Source: an uncultured Ruminococcus sp.
Lineage (GTDB): Bacteria; Bacillota; Clostridia; Oscillospirales; CAG-272
DNA: 64,000 nucleotides
Assembly: GCA_902762505.1 (NCBI GenBank)
Contig: CACWOQ010000004.1
Span: forward strand, 2,953 to 66,952
Direction: 5' to 3'
The notes under the pieces were generated by a model. The model ran no database searches, was not told where the DNA came from, and saw only the letters and a program-made list of their open reading frames with translations. The position numbers and the translations under genes were made by a program. Shown piece after piece: positions 34,239 through 58,828 of this stretch; position 1 is the first letter of the stretch, and every line of letters begins with the position of its first letter.

Positions 34239-34243
34239 ATATG

Positions 34244-34281
34244 AAAACCGGGGCGGATCCGTCGATACCGCCCCGGTTTTT
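34244..34281 (+). terminator. Intrinsic terminator
   Basis: 13-bp stem AAAACCGGGGCGG / CCGCCCCGGTTTT with an 11-nt loop and a T tail. Confidence 0.8.
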
Positions 34282-34400
34282 CCGTCATCCGCCCTCCGAA
34301 ATTCGAATTTACAAAATGTTTACAAGAATTTCTGACACTTTTTCGTAAAAAACGTATATATATATGAAGAGCAAGCGCTTTTGATAAAAGAGGTATATTT

Positions 34401-34658
34401 ATGAAAAAAATCAGCAAAGCTACCGCTCTGAAGAAAACCGTCTCGCTGCTGCTTTCCTTTGTGATGATCCTCGTTATCATCCCCATCACCGCGGTGCACG
34501 CGGACGACGGTCCCGGGCTTGCGGTCACCGTTCTGGATGAAGATCAGCTTCACGATATAGCCGCAGAGAGCGCGGGAAAGCTGCCGGACGAGCTTTTGCA
34601 GCGCCTGTCCCTGCGCGATGCCGATATCCCGGAATCAATGAGTTCCACGGATATATGA
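34401..34658 (+). CDS. Signal-peptide fragment (85 aa), probably the N-terminus of the downstream gene cut off by an in-frame TGA
   Basis: MKKISKATALKKTVSLLLSFVMILVIIPITAVHA signal peptide. Same reading frame as 34737..36905, with no further stop between 34659 and 34736. Confidence 0.5.
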   Translation: MKKISKATALKKTVSLLLSFVMILVIIPITAVHADDGPGLAVTVLDEDQLHDIAAESAGKLPDELLQRLSLRDADIPESMSSTDI

Positions 34659-34736
34659 AACACGGAAGCGGTCGCCCGGCTCAAAGCCCGTGAAGACGGT
34701 CTTTCGTCGCTTGTATATGTAAACCGTGACGGAAAG

Positions 34737-36905: not shown

Positions 36906-36930
36906 AAATCATCATAATGGAGGATGCAAA

Positions 36931-37605
36931 ATGAATTATGTAAAAAAAGCAGTAATATGCTTAGTTTCCATTACAATAGTATTGTCTGTCGCGTGTTGTG
37001 CATACGAAACGACGAATAAATATGACGGCAGCATAAAATGTGCGTTTCAACTATATCTGGTGATGTATCAGGATTGTGCAAATAAGCCATATGTTGAAAA
37101 TACTGACATAAGTATTGACGCTGATACGGAAGACTACGGAAAATGTAAAGCGTGGGAATTCACAGAGGATCTGTCAACTCCCGAAAAATTCAATGATTAT
37201 ACGTCGTCATTCTTTGACGATAACGTTTCCGCAAAGGCTTTTCATGAAACGATGTATCTTAAACTGATTGACGGAAAAATCGTATTGCTTGAGTTAGGAC
37301 CGCAATATATACCGTTTCAATATGACGAATCTGCGAAAACTTACATCATTGCAGAAACAGATAATACAATAACTTTGAAACGTGCAATCCTGCATATTAA
37401 CGGAAATGGCGACAGATCTCAAATTGATTACACCTTTATAATAAATAAAACAAATCAAAAAATCTGCGGAGGCACATTTGTTGAAAAAATGCTTGAAATC
37501 GATGCCGACACCCCTCAAACCTCCGACGCGCCAGTGATCGCTGTATGTGCTCTGACGCTTTCCGCCGCGGCGGCAGCGGTGCTGATAAAGAAGAAAAAAG
37601 TCTGA
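36931..37605 (+). CDS. Small surface (lipo)protein with a C-terminal TPQTSD sorting-signal-like tail
   Basis: ATG at 36931 with GGAGGA upstream. Signal/lipobox LSVACC. C-terminus DTPQTSDAPVIAVCALTLSAAAAAVLIKKKKV. Confidence 0.6.
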   Translation: MNYVKKAVICLVSITIVLSVACCAYETTNKYDGSIKCAFQLYLVMYQDCANKPYVENTDISIDADTEDYGKCKAWEFTEDLSTPEKFNDYTSSFFDDNVSAKAFHETMYLKLIDGKIVLLELGPQYIPFQYDESAKTYIIAETDNTITLKRAILHINGNGDRSQIDYTFIINKTNQKICGGTFVEKMLEIDADTPQTSDAPVIAVCALTLSAAAAAVLIKKKKV

Positions 37606-37752
37606 CCCGTGCCGTTCATCATATACGACAAGAACGCGGCGCACGTGATAGAGCCGGCGGACGATTACGGTCTGTCGAACGTAGCCGCCACCGTCACCGA
37701 GCTTCTCGGTCTTACGCCGGATCCCGTATGGCAAAGAAGTATGCTGAAATAA
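37606..37752 (+). pseudogene. 48-codon C-terminal relic of an alkaline-phosphatase-superfamily (metalloenzyme/phosphodiesterase-like) gene
   Basis: Directly in frame after the TGA of the preceding gene: PVPFIIYDKNAAHVIEPADDYGLSNVAATVTELLGLTPDPVWQRSMLK*. GC-rich like the host, and followed by its own terminator. No start codon and no N-terminal part. Confidence 0.5.
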
Positions 37753-37755
37753 GTC

Positions 37756-37780
37756 AACGGGGAACTCTGTTCCCCGTTTT
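37756..37780 (+). terminator. Intrinsic terminator (belongs to the relic gene)
   Basis: AACGGGGAAC-TCT-GTTCCCCGTT then TT. Confidence 0.65.
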
Positions 37781-37900
37781 CCGTCAAAAAAGCGAATTTA
37801 CATAAAATTAACAAGAAAAAACGACACTTTTCGGGTGTTTTTTACGTTTATATAAGTGAGCGAAAAAACCAAAATTATAATGCAGCAAGGAGAATGCAAA

Positions 37901-38713
37901 ATGAAAACCAAAAGAATTGTCTCGCTGGTCCTTTCAGTCATAACGCTTTTTTTGACATTACCGTCCTTTTCCGTTGCAACCGATGGATTGACCATATCTG
38001 AAGCGGCGAGGCTTGTTCGCGGATTTGAAGAAGCATATCTTATGACTGTCGAGTCAAACAAGGCGCCTCTTTTCTGGCAAAAGGATAAAAACATAAGTTT
38101 AAGCTACGAATACCGATTATCGAATGACAATCCGCAGTATGAGGCAGACAACGTTGAAAGCGGCGCCAAGTTATATATGTGCATAATGGAAACGTATGAC
38201 GAACTCCTGCAAAAACTGAAGCTTACGTTTACCGACGAGATGTCGAAAAAGATACTGAACGACAGTCGGTTCATCTATATCGACGGTAAAGCATATTATC
38301 CGAGAATCTTTTTCGACCCCGGTAATTTTTACGTTATTTCCGACGATGAGAATACCGAGGTTCCACTTGAAGAGCGTATTACGATTGTTGATAACGGAGA
38401 CGGTAGGTATACCGTTCATTACAACTATTGGGCGCCTGTCGAGGATGATAATGAAAACCATAATTCTGACAAATGGCTGTTATCCGATGCAAGAGACGGT
38501 CAAATAGACATCGTAAAAACAGACGACGGATTCAGAGTGTATAAGTATGACGGACTGTTATTCAAATCCGATCCTTTAGCGGACAGAGGCTTACGTAAAA
38601 CGCGTTTATTGAGCGAATCCCCTCAAACCTCTGACGCGCCGGTGATCGCGGTATGCGCGCTGGCGCTTTCCGCCGCAGCGGCGGCAGTCGTTCTTCGGAA
38701 AAAGCGCGGCTGA
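37901..38713 (+). CDS. Small secreted surface protein with a C-terminal SPQTSD sorting-signal-like tail
   Basis: ATG at 37901 with AAGGAGAA upstream. Signal peptide ...LPSFSVA. C-terminus ESPQTSDAPVIAVCALALSAAAAAVVLRKKRG. Confidence 0.6.
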   Translation: MKTKRIVSLVLSVITLFLTLPSFSVATDGLTISEAARLVRGFEEAYLMTVESNKAPLFWQKDKNISLSYEYRLSNDNPQYEADNVESGAKLYMCIMETYDELLQKLKLTFTDEMSKKILNDSRFIYIDGKAYYPRIFFDPGNFYVISDDENTEVPLEERITIVDNGDGRYTVHYNYWAPVEDDNENHNSDKWLLSDARDGQIDIVKTDDGFRVYKYDGLLFKSDPLADRGLRKTRLLSESPQTSDAPVIAVCALALSAAAAAVVLRKKRG

Positions 38714-46788: not shown

Positions 46789-49191
46789 ATGAAAATCGAA
46801 AGAATCATATCCGCGCTGCTCGCGGTCCTGACGCTTGTATCCGCGCTCGCCTCCTGCGACGCGGAGCCGGCTTCCGCATCGACCGGCACGGAGCCTGTGA
46901 CGGTGACGGAAACCGAAACGCAGACCGAAGAGCCGACCGGAACCGACGCCGAAACGGAGACGGAGCCCGTGACGGAGGAGCCTCTTCCCGAGCTTGTCAA
47001 AATGATATCGGTAAGCGAGCTCTGCGCCGACAACCGCCGTTTCACGTACGGATGCACCGACGACTGGGCTGAGCTTTATAACGACGAGGACGAGGACGTC
47101 ACTCTCGATTCGTTTTTCCTCTTCCGCGACGGCGACCGCGACGAACGAGTGGAGCTTGACGGGATAACCGTCCCGGCAAAGGGCTATACCGTTGTAAGAT
47201 TTGACGAGCAAAGTCCATTCCGGCTGCCGAAGGAAGGCGGCACGCTCTGCCTCGGATACAAAAAAGACACCGTTTCATTTCTTGAATACGACGAAACGAT
47301 AGGCTCGGGCTCCTTCACGCAGTCCGGCGCCTGCGCCGATCCGACGCCCGGTTACCCGAACACCTTATCGGGGCTTGAGCAGTACAAAGCCTCCGTCACG
47401 CTTCCGTCGCTGTATATTTCCGAGGTCATGTCCTCGAACAAAAAATACGCGCCGCAGGACGGCAAATACTACGACTGGATAGAGCTTTACAACGCAAGCG
47501 ACGCGCCGGTCACGCTTTCGGACTATTATCTGACTGACAAATATTCCGAGCTGAAAAGGTACAGGCTCCCCGCCGTATCGCTTCAGCCCGGCGCATATTA
47601 CGTGGTCTACTGCTCCGGCGTCGACCGCGAGGGTCACGCCCCGTTCAAGATCAGCTCCGACGGCGAGGATATCTACCTGTCAGACGCCCGCGGAGTGACG
47701 GATCTTCTGCAGGTCCCCGCGGATCTGAAGCAGAACGAAAGCTGCGGAAGGACAGACGGGCGGCTTCGCTACTATACGACCCCCACACCGTCCAAAAAGA
47801 ACGGCGAAGGATATGAAAGCGCGCTCCCCGCGCCGACGGCGAGCCTTCCGTCCGGCAATTACGACGGCGCCGTCGTCGTTTCGCTTCAGGGCAGGGGAAA
47901 AATATACTACACGCTCGACGGCACGGAGCCGAACGAGAGATCCGAGCTTTACGAGCGCCCGATCGGCGTTGACCGCGTCGCGTCCATCCGCGCCGTCTGC
48001 ATCGACGGCGGACGCGTAAGCGCTCTGTCGTCGTTTTTCTACACCGTGGGGATAAATCACGCTTATCCCGTGCTCGAGGTGGCGATCAAAGAAGAATATC
48101 TTACCGGTGAAAAAGGCGTGCTCGTCAACATAAATAAGGAATACGAGCACGAGGCGTATATAACCTTATCCGACAACGGCGCGGTGCTTTTCTCCGCTCC
48201 GTGCGGTCTGAAGCTTCACGGCAACGACAGCAAAAAGGGCGACAAACAGAATTTTCAACTCCGTTTCAGATCGCAGTACGGTCTCGGAACGCTCGATTAT
48301 CCGCTTTTCGACGACCGTGATTACACGAAATTCAACTCGCTTATACTTCACGGCGGCGGAGAAGACTATAAATTCGCCGGCTTCCGTGAGGAGCTGTGCA
48401 CACGTTTAGTCGACGGCGTGACCTCGCTTTACGTTCAGGCGTGCCGTCCGTGCGTGCTTTATTTCAACGGAGAATACCGCGGCATCTACTGGATACGCGA
48501 AAGGATAGACGCGCAGTACTGCGCCAACCGTCTCGGCGTTTCAAAGGATTCGATCAACCTGCTGCACACATACGGTACCGTATCCGACGGCGACAACTCG
48601 GGTTATCTCGCGCTTGTGAAATTCTGCGAGAAAAACGATCTGAAAAAAGAAGAAAACTACAAATACGTAATGGACAGGATCGACGCGCAGAGCCTGATGG
48701 ACTGGTATATCTGCCGCGCGTATCTCGCGGACATGGATCTTGCGAACATCAAGTATTTTCAGTCCACCGAGGACGACGGGAAATGGCACTGGTGCTTCTT
48801 CGATCTTGACTGGTCGTTCTACCACAACAACACGAAATCCATCGCCAAAGTCATGCCGAACAACGGCCATCACACCATGATCCGCGCCCTTCTGAAAAAT
48901 CCCGAATTTGAAGATCTGTTCATCCGCCGCTGCGTCGAGCTGCTCGACACGGTGCTGACCGAGGAGCGCGTTCTGAAGGAGCTTGATTTCGCGATAGCCG
49001 AGGTCGCGCCCGAATACGAGGCGAATAAGAAGAAATACCGCCTGTACGATTCAACCAGGCAGAAGCACGTTGACATGATCCGCGATTTCGTAAAGGACGG
49101 CGTAAGGCTGGAGGAAATGAAAATAAGCATACAGTCCTTCTTCTCCTTATCAGACGACCGCATGGCGGAATATTTCGGTCAAAACGGTTGA
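46789..49191 (+). CDS. CotH-family (atypical kinase fold) lipoprotein with two N-terminal lamin-tail (LTD) domains
   Basis: Lipobox LASC. LTD motifs ELCADNRRF...DWAELYN and ISEVMSSNKKY...DWIELYNASDAPVTLSDYYLTD. CotH region KLHGNDSKKGDKQNFQLRF...LILHGGGED...VLYFNGEYRGIYWIRERID. Confidence 0.7.
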   Translation: MKIERIISALLAVLTLVSALASCDAEPASASTGTEPVTVTETETQTEEPTGTDAETETEPVTEEPLPELVKMISVSELCADNRRFTYGCTDDWAELYNDEDEDVTLDSFFLFRDGDRDERVELDGITVPAKGYTVVRFDEQSPFRLPKEGGTLCLGYKKDTVSFLEYDETIGSGSFTQSGACADPTPGYPNTLSGLEQYKASVTLPSLYISEVMSSNKKYAPQDGKYYDWIELYNASDAPVTLSDYYLTDKYSELKRYRLPAVSLQPGAYYVVYCSGVDREGHAPFKISSDGEDIYLSDARGVTDLLQVPADLKQNESCGRTDGRLRYYTTPTPSKKNGEGYESALPAPTASLPSGNYDGAVVVSLQGRGKIYYTLDGTEPNERSELYERPIGVDRVASIRAVCIDGGRVSALSSFFYTVGINHAYPVLEVAIKEEYLTGEKGVLVNINKEYEHEAYITLSDNGAVLFSAPCGLKLHGNDSKKGDKQNFQLRFRSQYGLGTLDYPLFDDRDYTKFNSLILHGGGEDYKFAGFREELCTRLVDGVTSLYVQACRPCVLYFNGEYRGIYWIRERIDAQYCANRLGVSKDSINLLHTYGTVSDGDNSGYLALVKFCEKNDLKKEENYKYVMDRIDAQSLMDWYICRAYLADMDLANIKYFQSTEDDGKWHWCFFDLDWSFYHNNTKSIAKVMPNNGHHTMIRALLKNPEFEDLFIRRCVELLDTVLTEERVLKELDFAIAEVAPEYEANKKKYRLYDSTRQKHVDMIRDFVKDGVRLEEMKISIQSFFSLSDDRMAEYFGQNG

Positions 49192-49370
49192 ACCAAAGCC
49201 GGACGGCAAAAACCGGACGGCTTTTGTATTCCGCGCGGCTGTTTCCCGTTAATATAAATTTAACATTTTCCGTTTGCATTAAGCCGCAATACTATGCTCG
49301 GAGCATATTGATTTTTAGATTTGTTTGTGATAATATATAAATATAATCGACAAAGGCGGAAAGAAGACCC

Positions 49371-49790
49371 ATGAAGAATACAAGTGAAATGCTGAGAGAC
49401 CTCAAGGGCTGTGAGATGTTTGAGAAATACTACGCCAGCAACAGACGGGATTTCAACAGAACCGATCTTTCGTCGTATCTGAACGATATCATCGCGCGCA
49501 AAGGACTTCGCAAAAGCGACGTCATACGCCGTTCGGAGCTCAGCGAGGTATACGGATATCAGATATTCGGAGGCTTGCGCCGCCCCGAGCGCGACAAGCT
49601 GCTCAGTCTTCTCATCGGTATGGAGCTCAAATTCGACGAGATCCAGCTGCTTTTCAAATCGTGCGGTTACGCTCCGCTTTACGCGAAGGACCCGCGTGAC
49701 GCGGCGATAATATTCGCCGTACTGAACAGGCTTTCCGTTGCGGAAACGAACGAGCTGCTTGAAAAATACGGATTTGCGTCAATAGGATGA
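49371..49790 (+). CDS. XRE-like HTH protein (paralog A), first gene of the HTH / zinc-ribbon / kinase operon
   Basis: GLRKSDVIRRSELSEVYGYQIFGGLRRPERDKLLSLLIGMEL is HTH_3-like. Clear paralog of 57111..57539 (shared Y.YQIF...(R/K)RP.RDK, GY(A/P)PLYAKD.RD). Confidence 0.65.
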   Translation: MKNTSEMLRDLKGCEMFEKYYASNRRDFNRTDLSSYLNDIIARKGLRKSDVIRRSELSEVYGYQIFGGLRRPERDKLLSLLIGMELKFDEIQLLFKSCGYAPLYAKDPRDAAIIFAVLNRLSVAETNELLEKYGFASIG

Positions 49791-50956
49791 AAAAATGTAA
49801 ATACTGCGGACGTGCAATAAGAGACGAGGCGAGATTCTGTCTTTACTGCATGAATTCGCTTGAAGAAAAAAAGGTAATAGAAATAAAAAACAGACGCCCC
49901 GTCAAAGCGATCATCGCCGCCGGGGCTTCCGTCGTTGTGACGGCGGGTGCCGTTGCCGTCGCGCTTTCCGCGGGCGGCGCGGTAAACGGCGCGGCGCATA
50001 TCAGGGAAGCGTCTTACGCGCCGCTGACCGACACCGCCGCCGTGACCCTTGCGCAATCCGGTCCGGAGGACGAAACGGAGCTTGTGATATTATCGCTTTT
50101 CGCCTCAGCCGATCAAAACGGCGATGAGACCGGCGCGCCGGAAGCGACCGCACCCGAAACGACGGAGTCCGAGACAACGGCGTCGGAAACGACAGTACCC
50201 GAAACGTCCGCACCTGAAACCGCCGCGCCGGAAACCACAACGTCAGAAACGACGGCGCCCGAAACGACGGGACCCGAAACATCCGCGCAGGAAACCGCCG
50301 CACCGGAAACCACAACGTCAGAAACGACGGTGCCCGAAACGTCCGCACCTGAAACCGCCGCACCGGAAGCAACGACGCCTGTGTCCGGGCAGTATTCCAT
50401 CCTGCCGGTCGGGCAGATCGGATATCTCACGCCCGGCGTCACCCTGTCGGATAAGCCGTTCGTTTCGTACGGCGACTGGACCGGTTACCGCGCCGAGCAT
50501 ACCGTAAAAGGTGAGGTCGTGCAGTACGGCGATCCGCTCATATACGTTTACGGAGACGGTGAAAAAGCGGTGTTCGAGGCGTCGCCCGAATCGCTTACCG
50601 GATCCCCCTCCGACGCTGACGCGGCGGACCTCGCTTATTCCATGCTGTGCCGCGTTACCGGGGCTTTGCCCGGCTCGCTGTGCGACGCGGAGGGCAACGA
50701 CGTAAACGCTCTTATGCGCAGCGTAACGAATTACGGCGGGGAAGGATACGACGGCATCCTTACGTCTCTTTGTCTGCCGGACGAACACAGGCGTGTATTA
50801 TATACGTACGGGATGATACCCGAATTCAGCCGCAGTGAATTCACGATCGGCGGCGAGCGGAGCATGCGCGTCACGTTTGAGGTACGCCGGTGGTCCGGTA
50901 TGACGTCGGGGATCTGCGTCGTTGACTGCGTGACGCTCATTGAATACGCCGACTGA
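49787..50956 (+). CDS. Zinc-ribbon / single-TM / T-E-P linker / extracellular-domain protein (module A)
   Basis: Start overlaps the HTH stop (ATGA). [23 protein letters not shown] is a CxxC...CxxC zinc ribbon. TM helix [28 protein letters not shown]-type repeats, then a C-terminal domain of about 190 aa and unknown fold. Confidence 0.65.
50183..50377 (+). repeat. In-frame tandem repeat (60/75/60 nt units) encoding SETT(V/A)[15 protein letters not shown]
   Basis: Units at 50183-50242, 50243-50317 (with a 15-nt insertion) and 50318-50377, read directly from the sequence. Confidence 0.8.
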
Positions 50957-50957
50957 A

Positions 50958-51662
50958 ATGAACAGACAGCAGTTTGAAACAGATATAAAAAAGATCTACT
51001 CGACGGTAGCGGTGATAACGGACAAACCCGGAAAAAAGGTGATCCGCTGCCGCCACACAGAGCTATTGCGCGACGTTGTGGTAAAGATCACGGAGAACGA
51101 TCTGCCCGCGTGCCGTTTTCTCTGCGGGATACGCCACGCGAATCTCCCGGAGATATACGACGTGTACGATCTTGACGACGGGTTTGCCGTCGTCGAGGAA
51201 TTCATAGCCGGAATGGATCTGCGCGGATCGCTCGGAGCCGGACTGTACGACTACTCCGGCGCGCGCAGCGTGATCCGCCAGGTCTGCCGCGCGCTCGCCG
51301 TTCTCCACGAAAACGGCTTCGTTCACAGGGACGTGAAGCCGGAAAACGTGATGATCGCGGACGACGGGACGGTCAAGCTTATAGACTTCGACGCCTGCCG
51401 CGCCTATTCAAGCGTAAAAAGCGCCGACACGCAGATCCTCGGTACGATCGGCTACGCCCCGCCCGAGCAGTTCGGCGTGGCGCAGAGCGACAGCCGTAGC
51501 GATATATACGCCGTAGGCGTTCTGCTGAACGTTATGCTTACGGGCGTCCATCCGTCGGAGAGAATAGCGCGCGGACGCGCCGGCAGGATAATCAGAAAAT
51601 GCACGCGGATCAACCCGGACGAGCGTTTCCGTGACGTGGAAAAGCTTATATCCGCGTTATAA
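50958..51662 (+). CDS. Stand-alone short Hanks-type Ser/Thr kinase domain protein (module A)
   Basis: [30 protein letters not shown]. No TM helix and no sensor domain. The ATG at 50958 lies 1 nt after the upstream stop (TGAaATG), mirroring module B. The listed TTG at 50940 is the alternative start. Confidence 0.7.
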
Positions 51663-51701
51663 AGAGCCGTTTTCAGGGATAGGCTATATAAAGAAGAAAC
51701 A

Positions 51702-51757
51702 AACCCACTCTGTCATCTTTCAATTATAGAAAGTGTCATAGTGGGTTATTTTCTTTC
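51702..51757 (+). terminator. Terminator-like compound hairpin after kinase A
   Basis: Outer stem AACCCACT/AGTGGGTT, inner stem CTTTC/GAAAG, followed by ATTTTCTTTC. Confidence 0.5.
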
Positions 51758-51801
51758 AGCTCGTCTTAACCCTTCCGATATAGGAAAGGTTTTTATTATT
51801 C

Positions 51802-52013
51802 AGCTAAATTGCTCGCTTACGCTCGCAGCTAAATTGAAGTCTTACGACTTCAGCTAAATTGAAAACCACAGGTTTTCAGCTAAATTAAATTCGCCTTTAA
51901 GCTCGCGTCAGCGAATTTAGCTTGCGACAGCAAATTTAGCTATGCGGAGCATAATTCAGCTCGCCGCTCGCGGCGAATTTAGCTGCGGTGTACTTCCTTA
52001 TGAAGTACACCGC
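51802..52013. repeat. Convergent 4+4 array of the 9-mer AGCTAAATT alternating with distinct short hairpins
   Basis: Plus-strand copies at 51802, 51827, 51852 and 51878. Inverted copies (AATTTAGCT; one is AATTCAGCT) at 51914, 51933, 51953 and 51976. Spacers are GAAGTC-TTAC-GACTTC, GAAAACC-ACA-GGTTTTC, TGC-GACA-GCA, ATGC-GGA-GCAT, CGCCG-CTCG-CGGCG, plus a terminal 12-bp stem at 51985-52013. Confidence 0.85.
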
Positions 52014-52198
52014 TACCGCGGCTTTTTCTTTGCGTCCGGCTTTTCCACGCTGACATTCGTGCCGGACATTTCGCGGTATGATTCCGCTTCACCGTCCGTC
52101 AGCGGCACGCTCGCTGTGAGTCCCGTGCACTCGTTCGCCATGACGGCGCCGGCAAACAGCTCGTCCTTTGTGAGAGGCACTTTTTTCTTTTTCTTCAT
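52013..52198 (-). CDS. Small hypothetical protein (61 aa, Lys-rich at both ends)
   Basis: GGAGG lies 8 nt upstream of the ATG at 52198. MKKKKKVPLTKDELFAGAVMANECTGLTASVPLTDGEAESYREMSGTNVSVEKPDAKKKPR. The stop abuts the 12-bp hairpin of the array. I recognise no family. Confidence 0.4.
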   Translation of the reverse strand: MKKKKKVPLTKDELFAGAVMANECTGLTASVPLTDGEAESYREMSGTNVSVEKPDAKKKPR

Positions 52199-52256
52199 TT
52201 TCATCACCTCCGCCGCATTATTGCCGTCATGTTTTAAAAAAATTCAATGATTGATA

Positions 52257-52285
52257 TTGCAAATATGCACAATAGACTGTATAAT
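52257..52285 (+). promoter_or_regulatory. Candidate sigma-A promoter of the aminotransferase gene
   Basis: TTGCAA, 17 nt, TATAAT. Confidence 0.55.
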
Positions 52286-52361
52286 ATAATGAAAACGTAC
52301 GTTTTTTTGCAGGGCGGTTTGAGTTTTACTGCAAAAATACGGTCCTTAAAAGGTGGCTTAT

Positions 52362-53645
52362 ATGAAAAAATACACGGAAATGGATCGCGCGGAGCTTTTA
52401 TCCGAGCGCCAAAGGATACAGAACGAATACGACGATATCAAGGCGCAGGGCTATAAGCTCGATATGTCGCGCGGAAAGCCGAGCAGCGAGCAGCTGCGGC
52501 TCACGGAATCCATGCTCGGGATCCTCAATAAAGGATGCGACTGCAAAACGGACGAGGGCATAGACTGCCGCAACTACGGTCAGCTTTTCGGCTTGCCGGA
52601 GGCGAGACAGCTTTTCTCCTCCCTGCTTGACATCCCTGCCGACAACATAATCCTCGGCGGCAACTCGTCGCTCAATATGATGTACGATACCGTTGTCCGC
52701 GCGATGCTATACGGAGTGCCCGGCGGCGACCGTCCCTGGTGCAAGCTCGACCGCGTTAAATTCCTCTGCCCCTCCCCCGGTTACGACAGGCATTTCAGCA
52801 TCTGTGAATCGCTCGGGATAGAGATGATACCGGTAGACATGACGCCGACCGGTCCCGATATGGACGCGGTCGAATCTCTCGTCGCCTCGGACGAGAGCAT
52901 AAAAGGCATCTGGTGCGTGCCGAAATACTCCAACCCTCAGGGCATAACGTATTCCGACGAGACGGTGAGACGCTTTGCTCGCCTTGAATGCAAGGCGAAG
53001 GATTTCAGGATATTCTGGGACAACGCGTACGCCGTGCACGATCTTGACGAGGAAGGTGACAGTCTTCTGAACATCTTCCGGCTCATGCAGGGGACGGACA
53101 AGGAGGATATGCTTTATTTCTTCTTCTCAACGTCGAAGATAAGCTTCCCCGGCTCGGGCGTCGCAATGCTCGCTCTGAGCGACGGGAACCTCGCCGCAGC
53201 GAAAAAGATCATCGAGGTCCAGACGATAGGACCGGATAAAATAAACCAGCTGAGGCACGTAAAATACTTCACGAATGCCGAAGGCATAGTAGACCACATG
53301 AGACTTCACGGAATGGTGCTGAAGCCCAGATTCGACGTGGTGCTGGGTACGCTGCGCAAGGAGCTTGCGCCCGCGGGCATCGCCTCCTGGACCGAGCCGA
53401 AGGGCGGCTACTTCATCAGCCTCGACGTGGCGGACGGTACCGCCGCGGAAACGTACAGACTTGCGGCGGAAGCCGGCGTGAAAATAACGAAAGCCGGCGC
53501 CACCTTCCCGTACGGCAAGGATCCGAGGGACAGAAATCTGAGACTTGCGCCGTCGTATCCGCCTCTGCGCGAGCTGATCGAGGCGATACACGTCATCTGT
53601 GTCTGCGCAAAGCTCGCATATCTTGACAAAGCGCTTAACGTTTGA
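52362..53645 (+). CDS. PLP-dependent aminotransferase, class I/II fold (aspartate/aromatic aminotransferase-like)
   Basis: ATG at 52362 with AAAGGTGG upstream. LDMSRGKPSSEQL, CPSPGYDRHF, CVPKYSNPQG, FWDNAYAVH and FSTSKISFPGSG (Lys for PLP) are characteristic of this aminotransferase subgroup. Confidence 0.75.
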   Translation: MKKYTEMDRAELLSERQRIQNEYDDIKAQGYKLDMSRGKPSSEQLRLTESMLGILNKGCDCKTDEGIDCRNYGQLFGLPEARQLFSSLLDIPADNIILGGNSSLNMMYDTVVRAMLYGVPGGDRPWCKLDRVKFLCPSPGYDRHFSICESLGIEMIPVDMTPTGPDMDAVESLVASDESIKGIWCVPKYSNPQGITYSDETVRRFARLECKAKDFRIFWDNAYAVHDLDEEGDSLLNIFRLMQGTDKEDMLYFFFSTSKISFPGSGVAMLALSDGNLAAAKKIIEVQTIGPDKINQLRHVKYFTNAEGIVDHMRLHGMVLKPRFDVVLGTLRKELAPAGIASWTEPKGGYFISLDVADGTAAETYRLAAEAGVKITKAGATFPYGKDPRDRNLRLAPSYPPLRELIEAIHVICVCAKLAYLDKALNV

Positions 53646-53778
53646 CAACAAAAACATAAAAACCGGCGACAGCCGCGATCCGATACGATCCGCTGTTCAC
53701 CGGTTTTTTTCTTTGTATAGTCGACGTGCAAAAGCTCGTGTTCGATGGTTCGGATCTTTTGAGAACAGCAGATCCTTA

Positions 53779-54522
53779 TCATTTGCCGGGAAGGATCCTG
53801 ATCCCGGCGCCGAGCGCCGAGGCGAGCGCTTCGGCTGATCTGTACCGCAGATCCGGATTGATCTGCGTGCATTTGAGTATGATCCTGCCGGCGCGGCCCT
53901 TAGCGATCCGCTCCGTCGGGTGGGATCCCGTGAGCAGGACGTTGTAAAGAACGCCGAGCGCGTAGATATCGACTCTGCAGTCGCTCTGGCTTATTCCGAA
54001 CTGCTCGGGCGAGGCGTACCCCGGAGTTCCGAGCACTCTCGTGTCGCCGGTCTTGCTGTCGTCGTACAGGCGCGCCGCGTCGAAATCTATGAGCACGACT
54101 CTTTCGCCCGATATCATTACGTTTTCCGGCTTTATATCTCTGTGGACGAAGCCGTTTGAATGAAGCAGCGAAAGGATGCCGCAAAGACTGATAACGATAT
54201 CCGCGGCTTGCTTTTTCGACAGCTCCTCCGTCATGATCAGATCGGACAGAAGCCTTCCTTTTATGAATTCTTCTATGAGGACCGCTCCGTCCGGGCATTC
54301 GTATACCTCGTAAACGCGCGGAAGTCCGTCGCATTCCACCCCGCGCAGAAAGCCGTATACGGGCAGATATTCCGGCAGGCTTTTTATAAGGAAATCGCGT
54401 CCCGTGCCCGCGTGAACGGCTTTGAATATCATTTTGCCGTCTGACGCGGACATCTCGCCGCCGGTTTTGAAAAGCCCGCCCAGCCCGTCAAGCACTTCCT
54501 GTCTTGTTTTTTTCGTTCTCAT
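53779..54522 (-). CDS. Stand-alone short Hanks-type Ser/Thr kinase domain protein (module B)
   Basis: HRDIKPENVMI, DFDAARLY, GTPGYASPEQF. 247 aa with no TM helix. The ATG lies 1 nt after the upstream stop (TGAtATG). Confidence 0.7.
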   Translation of the reverse strand: MRTKKTRQEVLDGLGGLFKTGGEMSASDGKMIFKAVHAGTGRDFLIKSLPEYLPVYGFLRGVECDGLPRVYEVYECPDGAVLIEEFIKGRLLSDLIMTEELSKKQAADIVISLCGILSLLHSNGFVHRDIKPENVMISGERVVLIDFDAARLYDDSKTGDTRVLGTPGYASPEQFGISQSDCRVDIYALGVLYNVLLTGSHPTERIAKGRAGRIILKCTQINPDLRYRSAEALASALGAGIRILPGK

Positions 54523-54523
54523 A

Positions 54524-55798
54524 TCAGTTTACGTATTCCGCGTATGTGAATGTACCGCTCTCGAAAAACCACGGTATAGATTGTATTATCCTGTCGTCGG
54601 TTGGCAATCCGATAACGTTTTTATATTCCACCGTGACTCTGACGGTATGCTCGGCGCCCTTTAAGAGAAATTCACGGTATTCGTATTCTATCGAACCGAC
54701 GTTTCCGAGTCCGCCATACTCCCTGAAAACGTCGTATAACGGATAATCCGGATTATCCTCGTCAATACGTCCGTCAAATCCGTATTCGATCCCGATACCG
54801 CGCCAGCCATCCGGTCTCTTGTGTTCTTCCGCTTCCGATACGGCGAGACGGAGATCCGGATCGTCGGCACCGACGTTCAGAGAATAGCCTAACAACGACA
54901 ATCCGTCAAATTCGTGATCGGAATATGCGGCGACGGCGCCGCCGCCGTTTCTGAAGTAAACGAGCCTCCTGTGCTCAAGATCTTCAATTTGCTTTGATAC
55001 ACCGTAATCCGGATCCATCGTCCCGTATAAAAAAGTCGTCCAATCGTTATAACAATAGGCTTCGAGCCACAGGTATTCCGATACATACGGATCGTCCGGA
55101 GGTCCTCCGGCAAATTCGTCTTTGTCAACGATCCTGACCGGACCTCGGGTCTTTACCTCTACGTCGGGTATTCCGGTTTCCGGAACTGTTGTTTCGGGAG
55201 CCGTTGTTTCCGGCGGCGTTTCGGGGGTTGCCGTTTCGGCGGTCGTCGTTTCCGGGGGCGTTGTTTCGGGAGTCGTCGTTTCCGGCGGAGTTGTTTCCGG
55301 CGGAGTTGTCACCGGTGTCTGCGTTTCCTTTATCTCCGTCACGGGCGCTATGGTCACGGGCGCCGCTGTTTCGGGTTCCGCCGTTTCACCGTCTGTTTCG
55401 GGAGGCGCCGTTTCAGTCTCCGAAGCCGCTGTCACAGGCTCCGGCTCCGTGCCGGGTGAGGTTTGACCGTCTGCCGTCTCTGTATTATCCGGGTCGGTTC
55501 CGGTTATCGCCGGCGCAGCGGCGGTCACTTCCGTGCCGTCCGACGATCCGCCGTTCACGCCGGATTCGGCGTTGGTATACACACCGGGTCTGAAGCTGCC
55601 GAACGCACGGTGCACGGAAGTCACGGCGAGTACCGAGAAAACGGTAACGGCGGCGATAACGGCGAACAGCACCGGATACAGCCTTGATTTTCTGTCCGTG
55701 TCGATCACGACGCGTGCGGCTGAGGAGGTGCGCTCCGCGCAGAAAACGCAGAACGACGATCCGTTGTCGATCTGCCTGCCGCAGTTCGGGCATTTCAT
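54524..55798 (-). CDS. Zinc-ribbon / single-TM / T-E-P linker / extracellular-domain protein (module B)
   Basis: Preferred start is ATG 55798 (MKCPNCGRQIDNGSSFCVFC), 11 nt after AAAGGAGG. TM helix YPVLFAVIAAVTVFSVLAVTSV. PETT repeats. The C-terminal domain of about 210 aa is unrelated to that of module A. Confidence 0.65.
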   Translation of the reverse strand: MKCPNCGRQIDNGSSFCVFCAERTSSAARVVIDTDRKSRLYPVLFAVIAAVTVFSVLAVTSVHRAFGSFRPGVYTNAESGVNGGSSDGTEVTAAAPAITGTDPDNTETADGQTSPGTEPEPVTAASETETAPPETDGETAEPETAAPVTIAPVTEIKETQTPVTTPPETTPPETTTPETTPPETTTAETATPETPPETTAPETTVPETGIPDVEVKTRGPVRIVDKDEFAGGPPDDPYVSEYLWLEAYCYNDWTTFLYGTMDPDYGVSKQIEDLEHRRLVYFRNGGGAVAAYSDHEFDGLSLLGYSLNVGADDPDLRLAVSEAEEHKRPDGWRGIGIEYGFDGRIDEDNPDYPLYDVFREYGGLGNVGSIEYEYREFLLKGAEHTVRVTVEYKNVIGLPTDDRIIQSIPWFFESGTFTYAEYVN

Positions 55799-55922
55799 AT
55801 CCGCGCTCACCTCCTTTTAACGTATTTTACCACCGATGCGCGCAAAAATCAATATTTGCGGGAAAATTGAAAAGCCGTTTTTTAAAATTTATGATTTTTT
55901 GTTTTTTTCGGCGTAAAATATC

Positions 55923-55951
55923 TTGACAAACGTCTGAAAACTGTATATAAT
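55923..55951 (+). promoter_or_regulatory. Consensus sigma-A promoter
   Basis: TTGACA, 17 nt, TATAAT, about 40 nt upstream of 55994. Confidence 0.7.
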
Positions 55952-55993
55952 TAACAATAACGCAAGGCGTAATTTATATTAAAGGAGAATAAC

Positions 55994-56920
55994 ATGAAAA
56001 AAGTACTTTCAATAGTCCTTTGCACGCTTCTCTGCGCGGCTCTCGCTCTGACTTCGTTCGCAGCCAGCCACGCCGAATCCGCTAAAGCCGGCGAAGAGCT
56101 CTTCGCGGATGACTTTTCCGGTGACTCCCTCGACGCTGAAAAGTGGGATGCATGGGCCGGCTACGCAGTAACCGACGGCAAGCTCCATCTCGGCCACGGT
56201 GCAAGCTGGATCGATTCCTCGCCCGGCGCCAACACCAAGGTCACGTTCAAAAACTATATCGCAGAATTCGACTTCGCGGGCGACGGCAGAGACTGCTACT
56301 ACGGCTTCGGTCTCCGCACTCTCACCAGCCATACCGCCGCTTCTTTGTTCAACGGCGGCAGATTCGGTGTTCCGTCCGCGGCTGAAACGTCCACCGGTAT
56401 CGCGATAGACATCTTCGGCGCCGGCAACTCCACCCTCAACGGCGCAGCTCTCGGTATCACGTTCTGCAACGGCGGTGAAAACGGCTCCGCTCCGGCCCTC
56501 TCGATCCCGTACGCAAACGGCTTCGACGGCAAGGCCGAGACCCACTTCAAGGTAGTTGACTCCGGCGAAAAGATCACGATCTACGCCGCGAACAACGAGA
56601 TCGCGACCATCGAGCTTTCCGGTCTGTCCGACGGCAGCTACACCAAAGCCGCCGTATTCGGACCCGACGGTGCTTCCCTCGGTTCCTTCGACGTAACCGT
56701 CGCTGAAGAAGGCGCTCTCGCTTTCTATCAGAGAAACGACCACATCACCGTTGACAACCTGAAGGTCAACGCCATCGCGGAAGAAGCCGGCGAACAGCCC
56801 GGCGGCGATACTCCCGCGGATCCCGTAAATCCGGGTACTGCCGACGCTTCCGTCATAGCTGTCGCGGCTGTCGCCTGCGTAGCTCTTGCCGGTGTCGTTG
56901 TTGCGAAAAAGGTAAGATAA
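55994..56920 (+). CDS. Secreted DUF1080/LamG-like (concanavalin-type lectin fold) protein with a C-terminal NPGTAD sorting-signal-like tail
   Basis: AAAGGAGAA RBS and a signal peptide ...TSFAAS. FADDFSGDSLDAEKWDAWAGYAVTDGKLHL is a DUF1080-like opening. C-terminus VNPGTADASVIAVAAVACVALAGVVVAKKVR. Confidence 0.6.
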   Translation: MKKVLSIVLCTLLCAALALTSFAASHAESAKAGEELFADDFSGDSLDAEKWDAWAGYAVTDGKLHLGHGASWIDSSPGANTKVTFKNYIAEFDFAGDGRDCYYGFGLRTLTSHTAASLFNGGRFGVPSAAETSTGIAIDIFGAGNSTLNGAALGITFCNGGENGSAPALSIPYANGFDGKAETHFKVVDSGEKITIYAANNEIATIELSGLSDGSYTKAAVFGPDGASLGSFDVTVAEEGALAFYQRNDHITVDNLKVNAIAEEAGEQPGGDTPADPVNPGTADASVIAVAAVACVALAGVVVAKKVR

Positions 56921-56933
56921 CCTGAAACAGATC

Positions 56934-56964
56934 AAGGCGGATGACTTCTCATCCGCCTTTTTCC
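56934..56964 (+). terminator. Intrinsic terminator
   Basis: AAGGCGGATGA-CTTC-TCATCCGCCTT then TTTTCC. Confidence 0.8.
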
Positions 56965-57110
56965 TTTGATCCGCTTGCCGATTTTTTCCGCTTTTTTCAA
57001 AAAAATACGAAAAAAACCGCGATAATTATGCTCGCAGGTTAACACAAACGCCGAAAAATATGTATAATAGGAGGCAGAGCACAGACGTGAGTGAAAGGAA
57101 ATTCCGGGCT

Positions 57111-57539
57111 ATGGATAAAACAACGAAAGAGCTGCTTGAAACGATGAAAACAAGCAAGAACTACTACGAATATCTTGTCGAGAATGAAACCTCTCTTTAT
57201 TCCGGCAAAATGAAGCCCGGACGCGCTCTGAAATCGCTCATAGCCGAATCCGGTATGAAAAAAGCGGACATAATCGCAAAATCCACAATAGAACAGCACT
57301 ACGCCTATCAGATCTTCGAGGACAAAAAAAGACCCTCGCGCGACAAGATGATAATGCTCTGTTTCGGGCTTCAGTTATCTCTTGACGATGCGAACGATCT
57401 TTTCAAGGTCACCGGATATCCTCCGCTTTACGCGAAGGATATGCGCGACAACATAATCATATACTGTCTTGAAAAAAAGCAGAGAGTGATAGACGTGAAC
57501 CTGCTTCTTGCCGAACGCGGGTTCCAGACGCTCGATTAA
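57111..57539 (+). CDS. XRE-like HTH protein (paralog B)
   Basis: ATG at 57111 (GAAAGGAA upstream). GMKKADIIAKSTIEQHYAYQIFEDKKRPSRDKMIMLCFGLQL...GYPPLYAKDMRD is collinear with 49371..49790. Confidence 0.65.
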   Translation: MDKTTKELLETMKTSKNYYEYLVENETSLYSGKMKPGRALKSLIAESGMKKADIIAKSTIEQHYAYQIFEDKKRPSRDKMIMLCFGLQLSLDDANDLFKVTGYPPLYAKDMRDNIIIYCLEKKQRVIDVNLLLAERGFQTLD

Positions 57540-58828
57540 AGCCGTCTTGACATCTCCTCCGCGATCTTTCCCGTGTTTACGTACACGATGACCGCAAGCG
57601 CGACGCAAGCCGCGATCCCGGCGAATCTCACGACGCCCGCGTAAAGCATTCCGAAGCCGGAGGCGGCGGATACGGCGCAGGCGGCGATTCCGGCGATTCC
57701 GATCAGCTTGCATCTGTTATACAAACCTCTCAGATAGCCCTCCTCGTCAAACGTGGGGGCTTTTGTATATTTGACGACGGCTTCGCAGAGATATCCGTAA
57801 AGCAGATAGAACAGGTACGCGAACAAAACGAAGCAAAGGGCGCGAAGCGAAGCGACCGTCAAAAACGGCGCGGACGGTGAAAACGATCCGTTGTAGTGTT
57901 TTTGCGCCGTCACAAGCTCAAGCGAAAACGAGCCGGCGCAGAGCGCCGCAGTCACAGCCGAGACGACGGCGGCTTTTTTTGTTTTCGCAACGGCTCTCAA
58001 TCTGTAAAACGCGGCGAGCATCAGCGCTGCCGCGATGAAATCCGGTATCACGTCGACTCCGCGGATGAAAACGCCGGATAACGCGGCGCAGGCTGCCGTC
58101 AGAAGCGACGCCGACGCCTTTACCGACATAAAAGCCTGTTTCTCTTCATCCGAGCCGATCTCCGCGTCGTATCGCGCGGCGATCGCCGCGACAGACACTT
58201 TATCGGAGCGGAGCCTGCCGAAATACCTCACGGCGAGGATGAAGAATACGACGCCGATCATAAGCGATATCACAAAGCAGGCGACGGTTATCACGGATCT
58301 GCTGTCGTAGAGCGTGGCCCTCTGCAGATCGTCCACCGTGACGGATTCCTTATACGCGTTGTTCGTCAGCACCGTCAGCTCCGGCGCTGCGGCGAGCACG
58401 GCGCGTCCGATCACGAACACGCGCGAGGTGAGAAGCAGATCGTCGTGATATTTGTCGGGCACGTCGCAGCCGGCGCGTGTGCTGAGATAATAGCTCCCCT
58501 CGCGCAGCTCGGAAAAAGCCGGAAGAAGGAACACCGTCTCCGCTATCGCGAACGCGAACACGACGAGCATTTCCGTCATCTCGTCGCGCAGGCCCGCGAC
58601 GGCGGGCGTGAGTATCAGCCTTGCGAGGCTGAGATATAAAAGATACCTGAAATTGCGCGCGGCGGAATGCAAATCGCCGTTCAGCTGAGACGTCTTATAT
58701 AATCCGGCGGCGATCAGCGCGTACCCGATAACGTCCGGCATGAAATCGTACAGACCGAACGCGGGGACGAACAGAAACGCGATGCCGGCTATGATCAAAC
58801 CGTAACCCATAAGCAACGCTCCTTTCAC
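57536..58828 (-). CDS. Polytopic membrane protein of unknown function (about 10 predicted TM helices)
   Basis: 430 aa, hydrophobic throughout, no recognisable motif. Its stop overlaps the stop of the convergent HTH gene by 4 nt. Confidence 0.5.
   Translation of the reverse strand: MKGALLMGYGLIIAGIAFLFVPAFGLYDFMPDVIGYALIAAGLYKTSQLNGDLHSAARNFRYLLYLSLARLILTPAVAGLRDEMTEMLVVFAFAIAETVFLLPAFSELREGSYYLSTRAGCDVPDKYHDDLLLTSRVFVIGRAVLAAAPELTVLTNNAYKESVTVDDLQRATLYDSRSVITVACFVISLMIGVVFFILAVRYFGRLRSDKVSVAAIAARYDAEIGSDEEKQAFMSVKASASLLTAACAALSGVFIRGVDVIPDFIAAALMLAAFYRLRAVAKTKKAAVVSAVTAALCAGSFSLELVTAQKHYNGSFSPSAPFLTVASLRALCFVLFAYLFYLLYGYLCEAVVKYTKAPTFDEEGYLRGLYNRCKLIGIAGIAACAVSAASGFGMLYAGVVRFAGIAACVALAVIVYVNTGKIAEEMSRRL

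Follow-up and report, generated by a model that had tools for sequence, protein, structure and literature searches.

Hanks-type kinases of bacteria are usually described as single-chain proteins that occur in small numbers per genome and act pleiotropically, without exclusive partners (PMC4601284). In the PASTA kinases (PknB of Mycobacterium tuberculosis; PrkC, StkP and Stk1), an N-terminal kinase inside the cell and a C-terminal ectodomain outside are carried on one chain. The closest architectural precedent for a split between two chains is found in the bacterial tyrosine (BY) kinases (TkmA/PtkA, CapA/CapB, CpsC/CpsD): activator and kinase form one chain in Proteobacteria and are encoded by two adjacent genes in Firmicutes (PMC5035731). 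Here we describe a locus in a 64-kb stretch of DNA from an uncultured Ruminococcus sp. (contig CACWOQ010000004.1; the whole stretch is called the window below), in which a helix-turn-helix (HTH) regulator, a zinc-ribbon (ZnR) membrane protein with an ectodomain and a compact Hanks-type Ser/Thr kinase are encoded by three coupled genes. We consider it probable that the products form a three-component transmembrane signalling cassette, made up of a ZnR sensor, a detached minimal kinase and a dedicated XRE-type regulator acting at its own operator. The trio is conserved among gut Clostridia and seems to be a signalling unit that has not been described before.

The cassette kinase resembles the PASTA kinases in its catalytic loop, in the Asp of the DFG motif, in the GT/APE motifs and in the Arg of subdomain XI. 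It differs from them in that kinase and transmembrane (TM)-ectodomain protein are separate polypeptides, in the lack of PASTA repeats and TM helices in both kinases of the window (Kin_A and Kin_B), and in having a dedicated adjacent regulator where the PASTA kinases have pleiotropic targets. The likeness to the BY-kinases is architectural only: these are P-loop (Walker A/B) tyrosine kinases, of a fold unrelated to the Hanks fold, which are contacted by their activator through its C-terminal tail and not through a zinc ribbon, serve polysaccharide export and have no dedicated HTH regulator or operator. Ser/Thr kinases adjoining, or dedicated to, a single DNA-binding regulator are known from PknH-EmbR and AfsK-AfsR, but the regulators are of FHA/OmpR or SARP type, not XRE, and the kinases are single-chain; we know of no family-wide operator shared by either pair. 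Kinase-less receptor chains with a non-covalently bound soluble kinase occur in eukaryotes (cytokine receptor/JAK; receptor-like protein/receptor-like cytoplasmic kinase, RLP/RLCK, of plants), with unrelated docking domains; the likeness would be one of analogy, with no homology implied. In hipBA and hipBST, an XRE-type HTH gene also lies upstream from the kinase gene and the operators are palindromic, and in hipBST the kinase function is split across two polypeptides (PMC6581861). The kinase there is, however, a HipA-fold cytoplasmic toxin that targets aminoacyl-tRNA synthetases, with no membrane or ectodomain component.

Two further candidates were rejected as relatives. CD2148 of Clostridioides difficile is monocistronic and has neither the catalytic D/N nor the GT/SPE motifs (PMC9674922), whereas these residues are invariant in the present family and the gene lies in an operon. 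For the anti-phage kinase systems (Stk2, PD-T4-6, MADS mad6), PADLOC gave generic kinase-domain matches only. Searches of open-access PMC papers and bioRxiv turned up no account of the trio, the HTH family or the operator, an absence that is no proof. This agrees with an initial annotation of the window, made from the sequence alone, which knew of no described system having this architecture.

The three genes of the first cassette (cassette A) lie on the same strand between positions 49371 and 51662, in the order HTH_A, ZnR_A, Kin_A, and the following features were assigned to it:

49293-49307, no strand: operator A, a 15-bp palindrome TATGCTCGGAGCATA with a perfect 7+1+7 dyad; predicted HTH_A site
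49308-49336, plus strand: putative cassette A promoter, with a -35-like TTGATT (49308-49313), a 17-nt spacer and an extended -10 element TGaTAATAT (49328-49336)
49371-49790, plus strand: HTH_A, XRE-like regulator of 139 amino acids (aa), with two extra N-terminal and two extra C-terminal helices
49787-50956, plus strand: ZnR_A, type-II membrane protein of 389 aa with zinc ribbon, TM helix, linker and ectodomain
50958-51662, plus strand: Kin_A, compact Hanks-type Ser/Thr kinase of 234 aa

The TGA codon of HTH_A and the ATG codon of ZnR_A share the sequence ATGA at 49787-49790, and the TGA codon of ZnR_A (50954-50956) is separated by one base only from the ATG codon of Kin_A at 50958; the TTG at 50940 given in the open reading frame (ORF) list is a mechanical start. 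No strong Shine-Dalgarno sequence precedes the Kin_A start. The overlap and the 1-nt gap suggest translational coupling and, because of it, a balanced synthesis of the cassette A proteins. The tight three-gene coupling claimed in the initial annotation was thus confirmed. A promoter/terminator scan found no intrinsic terminator after Kin_A, and names for the exact cassette proteins were not found in public sources.

The initial annotation had left it to a survey whether the adjacency extends beyond this genome. The trio was found in named metagenome-assembled genomes (MAGs) of Acutalibacteraceae, Ruminococcus and Oscillospiraceae (loci L001-L004 and L012), and also in many metagenome contigs. 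A contig scan based on the full kinase alignment used generic motifs (HRD[IV]KPEN, GYA[SP]PEQ) and returned mostly ordinary kinases of Actinomycetota, Acidobacteriota and other groups; about 14 of its loci were useful and the other 67 served as negative controls. A metagenome scan with the family-specific C-terminal motif NVM[LM]TGxHP gave 498 confirmed matches, and 80 loci were analyzed. Two recurrent arrangements emerged from a scripted census: HTH, ZnR and kinase genes in this order on one strand, as in cassette A, and an HTH gene divergent from a kinase-ZnR pair.

A ZnR-TM gene was found adjacent to the kinase gene in at least 16 of the 20 kinase clusters (70% identity), 14 as called and two more (L002, L122) that had been missed through start-codon artefacts. 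ZnR-TM ORFs numbered 72 within 2.5 kb of the family kinases versus 3 in the remaining 234 kb of the same loci; they were approximately 24 times rarer away from the kinases, and a single one was present in the 594 kb of the generic-kinase loci. The window holds only two, each abutting one of its two kinases. Sampling from the homologs of the ZnR_A ectodomain gave the same picture wherever context exists, with a gene of about 140 aa before and a Pkinase gene of about 235 aa after or overlapping. The adjacency of HTH, ZnR and kinase genes is not due to chance.

Kin_A matches the Pfam family Pkinase (PF00069) with 111.7 bits (E = 5e-32, cut-off 31.7), the match beginning only at approximately profile position 50; the score of Kin_B, 97.5 bits, is also above the gathering score. 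Among the NCBIfam models PknB_PASTA_kin (NF033483) ranks first for Kin_A, at 128 bits versus a cut-off of 450. The protein had been described in the initial annotation as a bare catalytic domain of about 235 aa. Pfam and TM prediction found indeed no TM segment and no additional domain; the description was refined in that Kin_A is smaller than a canonical catalytic domain, and not merely bare. The catalytic loop HRDVKPEN, D143-F-D, the motif GT.GY.PPE and Arg223 are all present. Residue statistics for 179 non-identical family members showed R124, D125, K127, N130, D143 (the DFG Asp), D157-T158, T163, P169-E170, D182 and R223 in every member and His123 of the HRD motif in 175; the DFG Gly is replaced by D or N.

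The predicted AlphaFold structure of Kin_A (predicted local distance difference test, pLDDT, 92.8; predicted TM-score, pTM, 0.89) has the bilobal protein-kinase fold and consists of an N-terminal helix, three strands, a short alphaC and a C-lobe without alphaG. Residues 56-199 and 210-232 aligned to PknB in a profile search against the PDB (E = 2e-32), from which a deletion of approximately 30 residues at the alphaG region follows. The top Foldseek matches were PknB, PAK, PhK and MST3, with query-normalised TM-scores of 0.77-0.84 (PknB 0.79); PknB is the best match in sequence and in structure alike. Judged from both, Kin_A is a divergent member of the Hanks superfamily, a minimal kinase whose catalytic C-lobe is intact and whose N-lobe is non-canonical.

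A search of 5.8 billion proteins for kinase homologs gave 1888 matches at E <= 1e-10; the best 120 of these are all 226-255 aa long and the family length is fixed at about 233 aa. The kinase is therefore not a fragment, nor a remnant of a broken full-length gene, as the initial annotation had considered. That the locus might owe its form to chance adjacency, or be the debris of a fragmented full-length PknB-like gene, is hinted at solely by a kinase shorter than the canonical domain; this reading is refuted by the conserved length, the synteny in two gene orders, the two intact paralogous cassettes and the invariant catalytic residues, and its probability is negligible. One member of the 90% cluster of Kin_A, P0232 (597 aa), joins approximately 405 residues of an unrelated secreted protein to Kin_A residues 44-234 on one 6.5-kb ENA contig and is probably a chimeric assembly.

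ZnR_A starts with a putative zinc ribbon formed by two CxxC pairs, at residues 4-7 and 18-21 (Cys4, 7, 18 and 21), within a predicted cytoplasmic part of residues 1-37. A basic juxtamembrane stretch leads to the sole hydrophobic segment, residues 38-56 (nt 49898-49954). A tandem DNA array at 50134-50379 (period 75 nt, 3.1 copies, 80% matches) codes for the P/E/T-rich linker, and the C-terminal ectodomain comprises 191 aa (nt 50381-50953), in agreement with the ribbon, single TM helix, repetitive linker and ectodomain of about 190 aa first proposed for this protein. An N-in/C-out topology is predicted, since positive charges precede the helix and a zinc ribbon requires the cytoplasm. The Pfam zinc-ribbon matches of ZnR_A are weak (Zn_Ribbon_1, 21.4 bits, below the cut-off of 25); ZnR_B, the corresponding protein of the second cassette, has the same four ribbon Cys and passes DUF7575 (29.2 bits versus a cut-off of 28.5).

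The ectodomain family of ZnR_A is tiny: an exhaustive HMMER search of 1.84 billion proteins gave 5 representative clusters, all of them carrying the same ribbon-TM-acidic-linker head. The ectodomains of 27 loci, dereplicated at 90% kinase identity, fell into at least 8 unrelated BLAST clusters. By Pfam, some were of the BspA-type LRR_5, weak NosD-like beta-helix or DUF6273 types and others had no match; neither ectodomain of the window had one. Median pairwise identities over the 27 loci were 47% for the kinase, 43% for the ribbon head, 37% for the HTH protein and 31% for the ectodomain. Sequence comparison shows in this way a conserved cytoplasmic core with exchangeable outer domains.

No Pfam or NCBIfam match was obtained for HTH_A, the XRE profiles HTH_3, HTH_31 and HTH_26 included; HTH_C, its counterpart in the second cassette, reaches 15.2 bits with HTH_26, below the cut-off of 22. 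The family, of about 140 aa, is essentially unannotated, a precomputed PF13560 assignment existing for just 2 of 99 homologs. The AlphaFold model of HTH_A (pLDDT 94.1) has nine helices. Its 68-residue core was superposed by Foldseek on DdrO, C.Esp1396I, ClgR and C.AhdI (root-mean-square deviation 1.7-2.5 A, target-relative TM-score about 0.7) and superposes on XRE/Cro-type domains at about 2.2 A. On this model, which has the five helices of the XRE-type fold, HTH_A is an XRE-type protein, as had been supposed. It differs from its top structural matches, the C proteins (C.Esp1396I, C.AhdI) and DdrO/ClgR, in the four extra helices, in belonging to no Pfam or NCBIfam family and in being linked to a kinase and not to restriction-modification. 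I52, Y61, Y63, Q64, I65 and L103 are invariant in the family alignment, as is the motif Y-x-YQI of the recognition helix, and Thr4 is nearly invariant.

An inverted-repeat search upstream from the HTH genes identified a shared palindrome, TATGC-N5-GCATA, often as a perfect 7+1+7 dyad. Operator A is the only perfect TATGC-N5-GCATA in the window, in which one-mismatch sites occur at chance level. The exact sequence was found 75 times, in 74 of 103 family-type loci (758 kb; about 0.7 sites expected at equal base frequencies), and in 0 of the 67 generic-kinase loci (594 kb; about 0.6 expected on the same basis). Among 39 dereplicated HTH upstream regions 22 hold the exact operator, versus 0.01 expected from shuffles. 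It lies at a median distance of 80 nt 5' of the HTH start, and TTG follows immediately in 16 of the 22 exact sites. The common layout, seen at these 16 sites and in both gene orders, is operator, a TTGTTT, TTGAAA or TTGATT hexamer, 17-18 nt and TAnAAT, pointing toward the HTH gene. A conserved palindromic operator at its promoter supports the proposal that the HTH protein is an output of the system.

Operator A abuts the -35 element of the putative HTH_A promoter, with its centre near -43. Activators such as lambda cI at OR2 typically bind at this position, as do C proteins in their autoregulation; the latter act from dyad operators beside the -35 element, a geometry that resembles the present one. 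By analogy HTH_A would most likely activate its own operon. Loci L091 and L094 have, upstream from their HTH genes, a symmetric variant, TAAGC-N5-GCTTA, with the same change in both half-sites, which fits a dyad site that co-evolves with its regulator.

An XRE-type HTH gene that lies just upstream from a kinase operon with a palindromic operator, and overlaps it, also resembles hipBA and the split hipBST (PMC6581861), and the kinase domain matches the PADLOC models PD-T4-6, mad6 and Stk2. The locus could on these grounds be a conflict system, either a HipBA-like toxin-antitoxin module or an abortive-infection anti-phage kinase, with the HTH protein as autorepressing antitoxin. We find this highly improbable. 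The PADLOC matches are generic, cover the kinase core only and have E-values like those of Pfam Pkinase or PknB; the NCBIfam MAD6 model scores 80 bits versus a cut-off of 460; the kinase is Hanks-type and not HipA-fold, with no HipA family among the Pfam and NCBIfam matches. A membrane partner or fusion with a large variable ectodomain is unlike cytoplasmic toxins, the operator abuts the -35 element rather than overlapping the core promoter, and the neighbours are housekeeping genes (aspartate aminotransferase here; the same gene with infC, rpmI and rplT in L166) and not a defence island.

Members of this HTH family also adjoin longer kinases that belong to the clade: in Otoolea muris (Lachnospiraceae; 420 aa, two TM helices), in Faecalimicrobium dakarense (Peptostreptococcaceae; 357 aa, three TM helices), in Selenomonadaceae (458 and 359 aa, with kinase-TM-ectodomain order) and in Oscillospiraceae/Ruminococcaceae MAGs (409 and 545 aa). 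Among the HTH homologs, those most distant (P0206, P0214 and P0215; Gracilibacter sp. BRH_c7a) overlap by 4 nt with the gene of a 550-aa Pkinase+LRR_4 protein, in which the kinase (1-270) is followed by a TM helix (278-296) and a leucine-rich repeat (LRR) ectodomain. The N-in kinase/C-out ectodomain logic of the PASTA kinases is literal in these single-chain proteins. They have in common with the cassette the kinase clade and its signature (PPEQFG..Q[ST]D.R.D.YA.GV), the HTH family, often with a 4-nt overlap, and the palindrome in the locus. They differ in that receptor and kinase form one chain, without a zinc ribbon, and in that the beta3 Lys is kept in the examples inspected; in the LRR lineage, moreover, the palindrome lies after the kinase gene, upstream from the downstream genes.

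In a neighbour-joining tree (232 columns) all HTH-linked kinases grouped together, separate from the generic Hanks kinases, with the fused forms basal and the split forms as a derived clade in which the two gene orders are sister groups. Such a pattern would be expected from the splitting of a single-chain receptor kinase, in which the zinc ribbon would have replaced the kinase domain next to the membrane. An ancestral pair of HTH regulator and single-chain receptor kinase would have undergone fission in the Oscillospiraceae/Acutalibacteraceae/Ruminococcus lineage, after which ectodomains would have been swapped freely on the conserved cytoplasmic core. The split-receptor idea of the initial annotation is directly supported by comparison: elsewhere, kinases of this clade are single-chain kinase-TM-ectodomain proteins and are still accompanied by the HTH partner. 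Membrane sensor, separate kinase and regulator seem to share the work that is given elsewhere to a single-chain receptor kinase and the same regulator.

In several single-chain relatives the palindrome was located just 3' of the kinase gene (L161, 7127-7141; L163, 7126-7140; L164 and L165, approximately 7143-7164), and in L007 (6138-6152) and L008 (5927-5941) it directly follows the kinase gene, ahead of the next genes. About 60 nt separate it, in L161 and L163, from the downstream genes, which are unannotated and code for 128-129, 94 and more than 400 aa. The genes 3' of the palindrome in the single-chain relatives may be regulated targets of the ancestral system.

The single-chain relatives bear also on the role of the ZnR protein. 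Instead of being the sensor, it could be the anchor, substrate or output of the kinase, in an inside-out control of a surface adhesin or enzyme, with the kinase sensing a cytoplasmic signal. BspA-type LRR and beta-helix modules are common, indeed typical, in surface adhesins, the window ectodomains have no recognisable ligand-binding fold, and a few loci operate without a ZnR gene, such as L113, a genuine exception with HTH and kinase genes only; these points count against a sensor. The single-chain relatives, however, tether the kinase covalently to a TM helix and an ectodomain, in the topology of a classical receptor; the ribbon head sits at the same place next to the membrane and stays conserved where the ectodomains are unrelated, and sensor families are marked by just such a rapid exchange of ectodomains over an unchanging cytoplasmic core. 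We regard an output role for the ZnR protein as distinctly unlikely.

In the signalling mechanism that we consider probable, ZnR_A would be the sensor half, with a variable ectodomain outside and the 37-residue ribbon as its sole cytoplasmic part, Kin_A would be the detached catalytic half, soluble on its own, and HTH_A would be the dedicated output, binding TATGC-N5-GCATA centred near -43 of the cassette promoter. A ligand or surface event at the ectodomain would change the state or the oligomerisation of the ribbon head, which would recruit and/or activate Kin_A at the membrane. Kin_A would then autophosphorylate on the invariant activation-loop T158 and modify HTH_A, in which a single candidate site, Thr4, is conserved and nearly invariant. 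As a result the operator occupancy or activity of HTH_A would shift, most likely with activation of the operon and of targets elsewhere in the genome.

Several observations weigh against this mechanism. In the kinase family, the Gly-rich loop GxGxxG is absent (Kin_A has a hairpin, ITDKPGKKV, which is variable family-wide), and no alphaC Glu is conserved; the alphaC of Kin_A has 6 residues only (50-55). At the beta3 Lys column 132 of the 179 members have Arg (74%), 29 have Lys (16%) and 16 have His (9%), Kin_A itself having Lys43. Lys-to-Arg at beta3 is the classic kinase-dead substitution and, since the column is mostly Arg, the kinase activity may be low, partner-dependent or absent. The missing loop, the vestigial alphaC, the beta3 Arg and the deletion of the alphaG region also set the family apart from the PASTA kinases. 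The HTH family has no invariant Ser or Thr, and Thr4 is located at a helix N-cap and could be purely structural; no phosphatase gene is present in the cassette.

Further points of the same kind concern partnership, descent and promoter. No fusion of the ZnR_A ectodomain to a kinase, which would have been a Rosetta-stone case, was found in its 5 clusters from 1.84 billion proteins. Ribbon head, kinase and HTH protein co-diverge, a point in favour of the cassette (Spearman coefficients of the pairwise identities over the 27 loci are 0.75 for kinase and head, 0.79 for kinase and HTH protein and 0.54 for kinase and ectodomain), but these correlations are confounded by common descent and are no proof of contact. 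L094 has a lone kinase, with an HTH-ZnR pair 2.7 kb off. The neighbour-joining tree carries no bootstrap support, and BLASTP detected no similarity between the ectodomains of the fused kinases and those of the ZnR partners. The promoter of cassette A is putative, as is its transcription start site (predicted near 49343); this promoter was read from the sequence and falls below the promoter-scan threshold (8 of 12 positions match).

The degenerate ATP-positioning elements of the N-lobe (no Gly-rich loop, 6-residue alphaC, 74% Arg at beta3), together with the lack of an invariant Ser/Thr in the HTH protein and of a phosphatase, could mean that the kinase is a pseudokinase or scaffold within the same cassette, acting through regulated binding; HTH_A might, for example, be sequestered at the membrane through ZnR and released, as in a partner switch or with an anti-sigma factor. 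Mammalian KSR has Arg at beta3 and acts largely as a scaffold. In Clostridia, CD2148 of C. difficile shows that Hanks-like kinases of doubtful activity exist, but such pseudokinases have lost exactly the residues that are kept here (PMC9674922). All 179 members have the catalytic Asp, the Lys and Asn of the catalytic loop, the Asp that binds Mg and two Thr of the activation loop, a conservation difficult to account for if no phosphate were transferred, and Kin_A retains Lys43. A scaffold role is, on balance, rather unlikely.

The signalling mechanism may be extended by proposing that the ribbon head is more than a tether and completes the crippled kinase N-lobe in trans, making up for the Gly-rich loop and alphaC by what it supplies or brings into order; we hold this extension to be unlikely. 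If it were true, the ectodomain would control the assembly of the active kinase, in a cyclin/CDK-like or cytokine-receptor/JAK-like manner, and the cassette would be a dedicated, operator-defined Ser/Thr-kinase pathway working like a two-component system, with paralogous sensors in abundant gut Clostridia.

The cassette departs from the usual pattern of bacterial Hanks-type kinases by its dedicated regulator without a Pfam or NCBIfam model, its 15-bp operator, its separate and swappable receptor gene and its multiple paralogs. It offers a handle on Ser/Thr-kinase signalling in Oscillospiraceae, Acutalibacteraceae and Ruminococcus, which are common in gut samples and hard to study, and the activity of the pathway could be followed with an operator-based reporter. 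Environmental or host signals are suggested by the ectodomains (LRR, beta-helix and unknown folds). A kinase of about 233 aa with Arg at beta3, and yet perfect conservation of the catalytic loop, is a natural test case for the minimal requirements of a kinase.

A second complete cassette (cassette B) was identified in the window by tblastn with the cassette A proteins:

53779-54522, minus strand: Kin_B, compact kinase of 247 aa, 48% identical to Kin_A
54524-55810, minus strand: ZnR_B, 428 aa from a GTG start; similar to ZnR_A in ribbon and linker only
57027-57041, no strand: operator B, variant site TATGCTCGCAGGTTA upstream from HTH_C
57087-57539, plus strand: HTH_C, cassette B regulator, 36% identical to HTH_A

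The ZnR_B stop codon lies 1 nt ahead of the Kin_B start; the probable start of ZnR_B itself is Met5, at 55798. An orthologous cassette was found in locus L081, in which the Kin_B ortholog (66% identity) has the same context, the ectodomain clusters with that of ZnR_B, and the HTH_C ortholog (70% identity) is directly divergent from the ZnR-kinase pair; HTH_C was assigned as the cassette B regulator because of this divergent arrangement. L081 has at the same position a site with the half-sites of operator B and another spacer (TATGCTGACAGGTTA), the shared form being TATGC-N5-GGTTA. The mechanical start of HTH_C, ATG 57060, overlaps a TATAAT box and is followed by a conserved GGAGG and then by GTG 57087 and ATG 57111; one of these two is probably the true start, and the promoter geometry of cassette B is ambiguous.

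Between ZnR_B and HTH_C, a plus-strand gene (55994-56920) encodes a protein of 308 aa that has no Pfam match; its N-terminus resembles a signal peptide and a hydrophobic anchor lies at the C-terminus. The absence of this gene from the orthologous L081 suggests that it was inserted into the control region between the divergent genes of cassette B. HTH_C is convergent, with a 4-nt stop overlap, with a minus-strand gene (57536-58828) for a multi-pass membrane protein of 430 aa, also without a Pfam match. As this pairing is kept in L081 (60% identity), the membrane protein may be functionally tied to cassette B.

The ectodomains of ZnR_A (50381-50953) and ZnR_B (54527-55174) are not directly similar. 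A stretch of 70 aa in the B ectodomain is matched by P0222, which is related to the A ectodomain (RPDGWRG motif, pairwise E = 3e-5), and the two ectodomains may be very distant homologs. In L166 and L167, a B-like ZnR-kinase pair is located directly upstream from an A-like HTH-ZnR-kinase cassette; in L166 the same aspartate aminotransferase gene comes next, followed by infC, rpmI and rplT. To judge from these loci, paralogous cassettes tend to remain clustered.

The gene directly upstream from cassette A (46789-49191, plus strand) encodes a protein of 800 aa, secreted or lipoprotein-like, that contains CotH kinase, Lamin-tail and CHB_HEX_C domains; the cassette is in this way adjoined by a second atypical kinase fold, unrelated to its own. 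A hairpin with a T-run lies between the two, at approximately 49196-49231. On the other side, a gap of 690 nt separates Kin_A from the aspartate aminotransferase gene (52353-53645) and contains a 64-aa minus-strand ORF (52013-52207). A sub-threshold match to the Gut-1 RNA was found in the same gap (51909-51985, minus strand; 29 bits versus a gathering score of 50, E = 0.019), and the Rfam scan of 49000-57600 gave nothing else. Farther upstream, at approximately 34000-38000, the GC content is 0.39-0.45, compared with about 0.55-0.58 elsewhere in the window, and this segment could be a foreign island.

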